A stretch of 1,035 nt of DNA from Escherichia coli (GTDB lineage: Bacteria; Pseudomonadota; Gammaproteobacteria; Enterobacterales; Enterobacteriaceae): the NCBI RefSeq assembly GCF_003334335.1, contig NZ_QOWQ01000127.1. The stretch is one strand, 5' to 3'. The position numbers and the translations under genes were made by a program. Positions 1 to 1,035 of this stretch are shown piece after piece. Within the stretch, counting starts at the first letter, position 1, and each line of letters begins with the position of its first letter. The notes under the pieces are model-generated. The model saw only the letters and a list, made by a program, of their open reading frames with translations. It did not search any database and was not told where the DNA came from.

Positions 1-119
1 TTACAGAAAAAATACCGCTCACCGCCCTGTACCGTCAGGTCGATTTCCCAGAGCACCACCCGCGGTGACTGCTCTGATTTAACCGACTCGTTCAGACTTT
101 CTTCGTGAATATCCTGCAT
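1..119 (-). CDS. L: Minor tail protein L (lambda gpL family), N-terminal 39 codons only. Partial: continues past the window start. ATG at 119..117.
   Basis: Seen in sequence: reverse complement of 1..119 translates from ATG as MQDIHEESLNESVKSEQSPRVVLWEIDLTVQGGERYFFC with no stop. This matches the N-terminus of lambda gpL as I recall it (MQDI...VVLWEIDLT...GGERYFFCNEQNEKG...). The start shares one nucleotide with the M stop (TGATG), and an AGGTGG SD-like motif lies 7 nt upstream. Confidence 0.88.
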   Translation of the reverse strand, partial: MQDIHEESLNESVKSEQSPRVVLWEIDLTVQGGERYFFC

Positions 120-448
120 CAGTTCACCACCTGCTTAAACTCCGCGCTGAACTCAACGCGCAACATCCCGACCCGCGCAGACCACCCGGCACAGGTCACC
201 TTTATCTGCCGGTATGCATAGGGTGGCTTCCACAAAAATGCCTTCCAGCCACCGTGCTCTGCCAGGAACGCTTCCAGATGCCGGGCCTCCTCCCGGGTCA
301 CGGAAAGCGTCACCCTGTATGTTTTCAGGTCAGCATTCAGCCCTGCCGCCATACGCTGTGAGTACCCGTCACCAAAACGCACTTCACGCACCGATGGCTG
401 CGAGTTCACCTCCATATCCGGTTTCACTTTCCAGCGAAAGGTTTTCAT
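119..448 (-). CDS. M: Minor tail protein M (lambda gpM family; tail tip assembly), complete, 109 aa. ATG at 448..446, stop TGA at 121..119.
   Basis: Seen in sequence: ORF of 109 aa, MKTFRWKVKPDMEVNSQPSVREVRFGDGYSQR...KVTCAGWSARVGMLRVEFSAEFKQVVN. From memory, lambda gpM is also 109 aa with near-identical N-terminal (MKTFRWKVKP), central (VRFGDGYSQR, EEHGGWK) and C-terminal (RQIKVTCA...MLRVEFSAEF.QVVN) blocks. A GGGGAG Shine-Dalgarno-like motif sits 6 nt upstream of the ATG. Confidence 0.93.
   Translation of the reverse strand: MKTFRWKVKPDMEVNSQPSVREVRFGDGYSQRMAAGLNADLKTYRVTLSVTREEARHLEAFLAEHGGWKAFLWKPPYAYRQIKVTCAGWSARVGMLRVEFSAEFKQVVN
127..132 (-). promoter_or_regulatory. Shine-Dalgarno-like ribosome binding site for L (AGGTGG on the minus strand), 7 nt upstream of the L start codon and embedded in the 3' end of the M coding sequence.
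   Basis: Seen in sequence: minus-strand reading ...cAGGTGGtgaactgATG. Function is inferred. Confidence 0.5.
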
Positions 449-1035
449 CGCCCGCTCCCCGATAACAGACCGCCATCACGCAACTGCAGCCGGAGCTCAT
501 CCTGCGCACCTTTACGGGCCATCTCATACACCGCTTTCATCAGCTGCGGCCCGGCCTGTCCGTTGATGCCGTCGTTCTGAATCACCACGTGATTGTTCTG
601 ATTAAAATTAATGCCTTCGGCCCGCCGCATCTGCGCCGGACTTCCGGCAGCACCCACATACCCCCCTTCCGCATAGCCCCGCATCAGGCGGTACAGGTTC
701 CCGACACCAATCCGGCTGGTTGCCTCCTTCGTGAAGACAAACTCCCCGCGGTGGACAATCCCCGCTGGCTCATATTTGCCACCGGTTCCCGTAAATCCCC
801 CGGTCGCGAAATGGAAGTTCGCCGCCGCAGCCTGAATGGCCGTCCCCGTGGAAGCGGATGCGCCACCACCGAAAGCACCACCAATGGCGCTGCCGATACG
901 CCCGACAATCCCCACCATCGCCTGCTTCAGAAAAATCTCTGTCAGCATGGAGAGCACGGAACGGGTGAAACCACGCCAGTTCTGTTCGCTGCCGGTCAGC
1001 ATCGCTGCCATATTCTGTGCAATACCGTCAAAGGT
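445..1035 (-). CDS. H: Tail tape measure protein, C-terminal portion (lambda gpH-like). Partial: the reading frame stays open upstream of the first in-window Met to the window edge at 1035 (TFDGIAQN precedes MAAMLTG...), so the true start lies beyond the window. Stop codon TGA at 447..445.
   Basis: Seen in sequence: long minus-strand ORF (track 445..1011, 188 aa from first Met) that my own translation extends without a stop to 1035. It ends ...LRLQLRDGGLLSGSGR* and its stop overlaps the start of a recognisable gpM homolog by 4 nt (ATGA). Position immediately upstream of M and L, plus the Gly/Ala-rich hydrophobic C-terminal region, fit lambdoid tape measure proteins. Identity is by synteny and recalled similarity, not by a search. 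Confidence 0.85.
   Translation of the reverse strand, partial: TFDGIAQNMAAMLTGSEQNWRGFTRSVLSMLTEIFLKQAMVGIVGRIGSAIGGAFGGGASASTGTAIQAAAANFHFATGGFTGTGGKYEPAGIVHRGEFVFTKEATSRIGVGNLYRLMRGYAEGGYVGAAGSPAQMRRAEGINFNQNNHVVIQNDGINGQAGPQLMKAVYEMARKGAQDELRLQLRDGGLLSGSGR
455..460 (-). promoter_or_regulatory. Shine-Dalgarno-like ribosome binding site for M (GGGGAG on the minus strand), 6 nt upstream of the M start codon and embedded in the 3' end of the H coding sequence.
   Basis: Seen in sequence: minus-strand reading ...tcGGGGAGcgggcgATGA. Purine-rich, SD-like motif at appropriate spacing; function is inferred. Confidence 0.5.
778..957 (-). other. Gly/Ala-rich hydrophobic segment within the tape measure C-terminal region (about 60 aa: VLSMLTEIFLKQAMVGIVGRIGSAIGGAFGGGASASTGTAIQAAAANFHFATGGFTGTGG), with small-residue spacing resembling glycine-zipper / GxxxG motifs.
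   Basis: Seen in the translated sequence: a run dominated by G, A, I, V, L, F, S and T with very few charged residues, including G-x-x-G-x-x-G-x-x-x-GG-x-x-GGG. A membrane-interacting or channel-forming role is inference; no prediction tool was run. Confidence 0.45.

Follow-up and report, generated by a model that had tools for sequence, protein, structure and literature searches.

The window analyzed here, a stretch of 1035 bases taken at its full length, almost certainly comes from within the late (tail) operon of a lambda-like Escherichia coli siphophage or prophage. It carries, on the minus strand, the 3′ end of the tape measure gene H, all of gene M and the 5′ start of gene L. The ORF table and its translation give three consecutive minus-strand reading frames, each in a different frame. 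We found nothing against their identification as a lambda-type H-M-L segment. A preliminary description, made before any database search, had named the same three genes in canonical order on the minus strand. That assignment holds, with gap-free protein identities of 72–83% to lambda, matches to the family models and the same gene overlaps as in lambda. Its counts of 109 aa for M and 196 codons for the tape measure fragment are both exact on translation.

The H fragment occupies 448–1035 (minus strand) and runs off the window at 1035. Its 196 sense codons correspond to lambda gpH 658–853, and its stop codon TGA lies at 445–447. Gene M is complete at 122–448 (minus strand), with 109 codons, an ATG start and a TGA stop at 119–121. 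Gene L starts with an ATG at 119–117 and runs off the window at position 1, so that 1–119 (minus strand) holds its first 39 codons (119–3) and two further bases. Both junctions are overlaps. The H stop (447–445) and the M start (448–446) share ATGA at 445–448 on the minus strand, as read from the sequence, the ORF table and the lambda coordinates. The M stop (121–119) and the L start (119–117) form TGATG at 117–121 on the same strand, with A119 common to both, as read from the sequence and from the lambda alignment and coordinates. By analogy, these stop/start overlaps suggest that translation may be coupled across H/M and M/L. Purine-rich stretches lie 5′ of the two starts, GGGGAG at 460–455 for M and AGGTGG at 132–127 for L (minus strand), and are putative ribosome-binding sites.

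Phage lambda (J02459, 10542–14127) has the same order of H, M and L, an M of equally 109 aa, and three products that align to those of the window without gaps. Its junctions show the same 4-base and 1-base overlaps: H ends at 13103 and M starts at 13100, and M ends and L starts at 13429. Substitutions relative to lambda were counted by codon position in the alignment and number 25/17/79 at positions 1/2/3 in H, 18/11/43 in M and 7/7/20 in L. The excess at third positions in all three frames indicates protein-coding sequence under purifying selection on the minus strand.

Each product was compared with lambda proteins, family models and solved structures. All three, the H fragment, M and the L fragment, fall in tail families of PHROGs. 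The H fragment is identical to lambda H 658–853 at 162 of 196 residues (83%), without gaps (BLASTP E = 2e-91). Against the NCBIfam model TIGR01541 (tape_meas_lam_C) it scores 191 bits, where the curated cut-off is 104.75, and covers model positions 177–332 of 332. A search with this fragment had been proposed in the preliminary description as a check on its reading, and both the above-cut-off TIGR01541 match and the alignment to lambda H agree with that reading. The fragment also matches PF09718 (E = 5.3e-8) and the PDB chain 8iyk_H, ‘Tape measure protein’ (E = 5.4e-98). The structural matches of H comprise nine chains in three PDB entries, three per entry. In relatives of the window, the full H has 853–859 aa and carries PF06791 and PF09718. 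PF06791 belongs to the long, largely helical N-terminal body of H, which lies beyond the window and determines tail length.

Lambda gpH is cut near its glycine-rich region into gpH* and a C-terminal piece, gpHC, and both the function of gpHC and the exact site of the cut are described as unknown (PMC12617516). Residues of about 690–817 are unresolved in the tail structures (PMC12617516), and residues 818–849 form a three-helix coiled coil on the gpI tripod in the tip lumen (PMC10721106). The glycine-rich region and the C-terminal helix of the window product align to lambda 691–730 and 818–849, both free of gaps. The Gly/Ala-rich hydrophobic stretch equivalent to lambda 691–712 lies at 871–936 (minus strand) by alignment to lambda, and its placement in the cleavage region follows PMC12617516. 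The C-terminal helix lies at 460–555 (minus strand). It is matched by PDB 9e7m_Ha, a 32-residue C-terminal chain that aligns with fragment residues 162–192 (E = 3e-8), and its probable role is taken from the lambda work (PMC10721106, PMC12617516). On this analogy, the window would span the end of gpH*, the cleavage region (about 871–936), the whole C-terminal fragment with its docking helix (460–555) and all of M.

One residue of the glycine-rich hydrophobic stretch sets the window apart. Its H has arginine (CGT, 898–900, minus strand), where lambda (Ser703) and seven other aligned relatives have serine. The arginine allele is not a singleton: the surrounding stretch of 61 bases occurs exactly in at least 12 complete E. 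coli records.

The whole M protein lies in the window. It is identical to lambda M (residues 1–109) at 87 of 109 positions (80%), without gaps (BLASTP E = 2e-66). Residues 2–108 match Pfam PF05939 (Phage_min_tail) over model positions 1–108 of 108 (E = 4.1e-38, 130.5 bits), which confirms the membership of the 109-aa product in the phage minor tail protein M family that had been put forward for checking. PHROGs places M in phrog_14, minor tail protein (E = 5e-40). The best PDB match is ‘Tail tip protein M’ 8iyk_M (E = 2.4e-55), with further matches in 8iyl, 8k35, 8xcg and 9e7m, amounting to 30 chains in five entries, six per entry. A more distant solved relative is PDB chain 25vf_6, a 113-residue ‘MF2 protein’ with six chains in its entry (E = 7.7e-12).

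In lambda, six copies of gpM form the distal tail protein ring, with one face on the hexameric gpV tube and the other on the threefold gpL/gpJ ring (PMC10721106). By homology, window M is predicted to be a tube-protein-like beta-sandwich that forms a ring of six. Lambda M residues K2, W6 and R80 touch the side-fiber collar in Ur-lambda (PMC12617516), and all three are retained in window M in the alignment to lambda. M lies between the tape measure gene and L in the window, in lambda and in all eight E. coli loci read with their flanks. The exact window M protein occurs in 31,706 blocks of the public assembly collection.

The L fragment is identical to lambda L 1–39 at 28 of 39 residues (72%), without gaps (BLASTP E = 4e-19). 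It matches phrog_4199 and phrog_18, both minor tail protein, and by homology L would be the tail tip hub protein (family models TIGR01600 and PF05100). Against TIGR01600 it scores 31.5 bits (E = 1e-7); the cut-off of 70.75 applies to the full length, and a score below it is expected when the window supplies 39 residues, a sixth of the protein. Relatives have an L of 232 aa annotated in full at this position. Lambda gpL has a tube-like N-terminal domain in the last ring of the tip and an iron-sulfur cluster domain at residues 154–232 (PMC10721106).

To place the window in context, flanks were read in eight E. coli loci with 94.8–99.5% DNA identity to it: the prophage of strain SW070917 (L001), phage PhiR12_2_star (L002) and six loci with the exact M protein (L004–L009). 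All eight have the remainder of H beyond window position 1035, with T, G and V after it. On the position 1 side, L continues in all eight, and K, I and J follow it in seven (the exception is L006). These are the neighbors on both sides that the preliminary description had predicted. In L001 and L002, T, G, V and U come beyond H, and the remainder of L leads on to K, I and J. The six exact-M loci read portal, protease, D, E, FI, FII, Z, U, V, G, T, H, M and L, and five of them go on to K, I, J (where called), lom and tail fiber genes. The sequences of the window and its relatives themselves show which genes these are, their order and overlaps, the purifying selection on them and their surroundings in relatives.

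Some of these loci have features of their own. In L006 (CP035330.1, 10330–19136), L ends early, at 211 aa, and directly after it come genes of another phage type: holin, lysozyme, Rz-like, HNH, terminase and capsid. The H of this locus is also split, into ORFs of 571 aa and 324 aa. L006 is a rearranged or composite prophage. The head module next to the tail genes also varies. In L001 (26404–32207) a nearly identical H-M-L is joined to a head module with a ClpP-like protease/major capsid fusion. L002 (13581–17031) and L004–L009 have H-M-L next to a head module of the lambda type (Nu3/C, D, E, FI and FII). The SW070917 prophage adjoins a tRNA-Ser gene beside the hya operon. The annotation gives its J as incomplete, with the C-terminus missing and an IS4 transposase gene adjacent, and its T is flagged ‘internal stop’ (L001 9937–17838 and 23041–23445). 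The flag on T could reflect either the G-T frameshift arrangement or a real defect.

Close copies of the window are common. It matches 3668 of 5426 complete E. coli genomes, about two thirds, with a median of two and a maximum of 13 matches per genome. Nearly all matches are chromosomal (10,953 places on chromosomes). A further 224 phage records match, most of them from Escherichia and Stx-converting phages. The system is well known and not novel, as had been stated at the outset. A 100% match to the window was absent from the phage records, from the complete E. coli genomes and from the six exact-M loci; the best identities there are 99.5–99.6%.

The nearest relatives are the SW070917 prophage (99.5%, five mismatches) and PhiR12_2_star (99.5%). 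They differ from the window at four to five bases, including those that give the window arginine for their serine in H and the window threonine for their methionine at M residue 47. More broadly, lambdoid E. coli prophages and Stx-converting phages (the SW070917 prophage, PhiR12_2_star, VT1-Sakai and 1720a-02) are 93–99.5% identical to the window in DNA along its entire length. Tape measure, M and L are annotated alike in these relatives, and the window’s allele of the H C-terminus is theirs, not lambda’s.

Two phage genomes have H annotated as two ORFs. PhiR12_2_star has G5 in place of the G6 run at window 661–666 (L002, about 8660), a 1-base deletion. PhiR5_1 lacks one base near window 784 (L010, about 3784). 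Both deletions lie downstream of the natural cleavage region of lambda gpH, and either may be real or a sequencing error. A literature search on PhiR12 and PhiR5 returned unrelated papers only.

DNA identity between the window and lambda is 78% overall and unevenly spread. A maximum chi-square analysis places a change point at window position 671, inside H, with 88% identity in the upstream part of H vs 73% from there onward through M and L. In 300 permutations, a value this high never arose. Within H, divergence from lambda peaks in a patch at 586–675 (minus strand), equivalent to about lambda H 778–810, with 53–55% DNA identity in 60-base windows. Its window allele is common to all seven aligned E. 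coli prophage relatives, and lambda is the one that differs. The upstream edge of this patch, near 671, is a mosaic junction within H. Along the alignment, identity to lambda drops from about 0.9 to 0.53–0.55 within about 60 bases near 671 and then settles at about 0.73 through M and L. The patch sits in a part of gpHC that the lambda cryo-EM structures do not resolve.

The E. coli loci show a contrast at another point. L004–L009 have 99.4–99.7% identity to the window in M DNA (119–448) but only 91–95% in the H fragment (445–1035), which points to a probable recombination at or near the H/M boundary. The preliminary description had called the proteins not identical to those of lambda and had ascribed this to mosaic diversity. 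The first part is borne out by the DNA identity of 78%, and the second by the change point in H together with the contrast between M and H in L004–L009.

A further reading of the junction near 671 would make it a boundary between co-adapted units: the H body on one side and, on the other, a tip-interaction cassette (the last ~70 H residues, M and L) swapped as a block among lambdoid phages. The patch at 586–675 would then alter the processing or release of the C-terminal H fragment at infection. If the 1-base deletions in H of the two phage genomes are real, they would mean that this fragment can be separately supplied or is dispensable. We regard this reading as speculative and improbable.

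The main alternative accepts the genes as genuine and places this copy in a cryptic, defective prophage that has lost the ability to build tails, so that the frames are relics that happen to be intact in the window. We consider this possible, though clearly the less likely state of the element. Many chromosomal prophages of E. coli are defective, and most matches to the window are indeed chromosomal, at 10,953 places with a median of two and up to 13 per genome. Two of the loci read with flanks are in line with such decay: the SW070917 prophage, with a J annotated as incomplete beside the IS4 transposase gene and a flagged T, and L006, where a foreign module comes after an L that stops at 211 aa. 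In the window, by contrast, all three frames are open, and the substitutions relative to lambda show purifying selection. A 99.5% copy is present in the deposited phage genome of PhiR12_2_star, though H there is split by the 1-base deletion, and other deposited phage genomes with 96.7% identity have H annotated intact. This alternative bears on the state of the whole element, not on the coding content of the window.

It is very unlikely that the segment stems from a tailocin or gene transfer agent, a domesticated tail-like particle, and not from a phage. Tail modules by themselves can be domesticated, and the window shows tail genes only. Against this, head genes (portal, capsid or terminase) adjoin the tail module in all eight loci with flanks, the SW070917 prophage has a lysis cassette on the head-gene side, and the closest phage records are complete phage genomes. 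A gene on the plus strand has even less probability, close to none. The candidate is an 83-codon ORF at 214–465, antisense to M, which is the longest on the plus strand and lies in a frame with just four stops across the window. We rejected it and judged it a by-product of codon usage. Its lambda equivalent has neither an ATG at the start nor a stop at the end, and its translation is poorly conserved relative to lambda while M opposite is 80% identical. Substitutions track the codon phase of M and not that of the ORF, and the ORF has no promoter-like site. The G+C content at third positions of M is 0.70, and opposite genes rich in G+C at third positions an open antisense frame is to be expected.

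Other kinds of element were also sought in the window. An Rfam search of both strands with E up to 1 gave no match to a structured RNA, and no promoter-like sites were found. One terminator-like hairpin is present (plus strand, 749–767), compared with 0.9 expected by chance. The lack of promoter-like sites and the chance-level count of terminators fit an internal stretch of a long operon. Given no Rfam match, no promoter-like sites and an antisense ORF that is not conserved, we found nothing encoded in the window beyond H, M and L.

With the window taken as part of a lambda-like tail operon, its working can be proposed by homology. The oligomeric states, the cleavage and the assembly roles that follow are carried over from lambda. 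H, M and L would be translated from a single long late transcript. The C-terminal end of H would anchor the tape measure in the tip, with a trimer of its last helix resting on the gpI plug. Cleavage of H in the glycine-rich region would yield two parts: a long one, which would later be ejected and may form a channel across the cell envelope, and a C-terminal one, which would remain with the tip. A ring of six M copies would link the threefold tip (L, J and I) to the sixfold V tube, and L and J together would form the final ring of the tip cone.

The window is one more allele of an already known tail tip segment that has been studied for decades and solved by cryo-EM. In practice, it serves as a marker of a lambdoid phage or prophage in the source sequence. 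Of some mild use is the location of the patch divergent from lambda and of the frameshifts in relatives: both lie in the C-terminal cleavage product of the tape measure.
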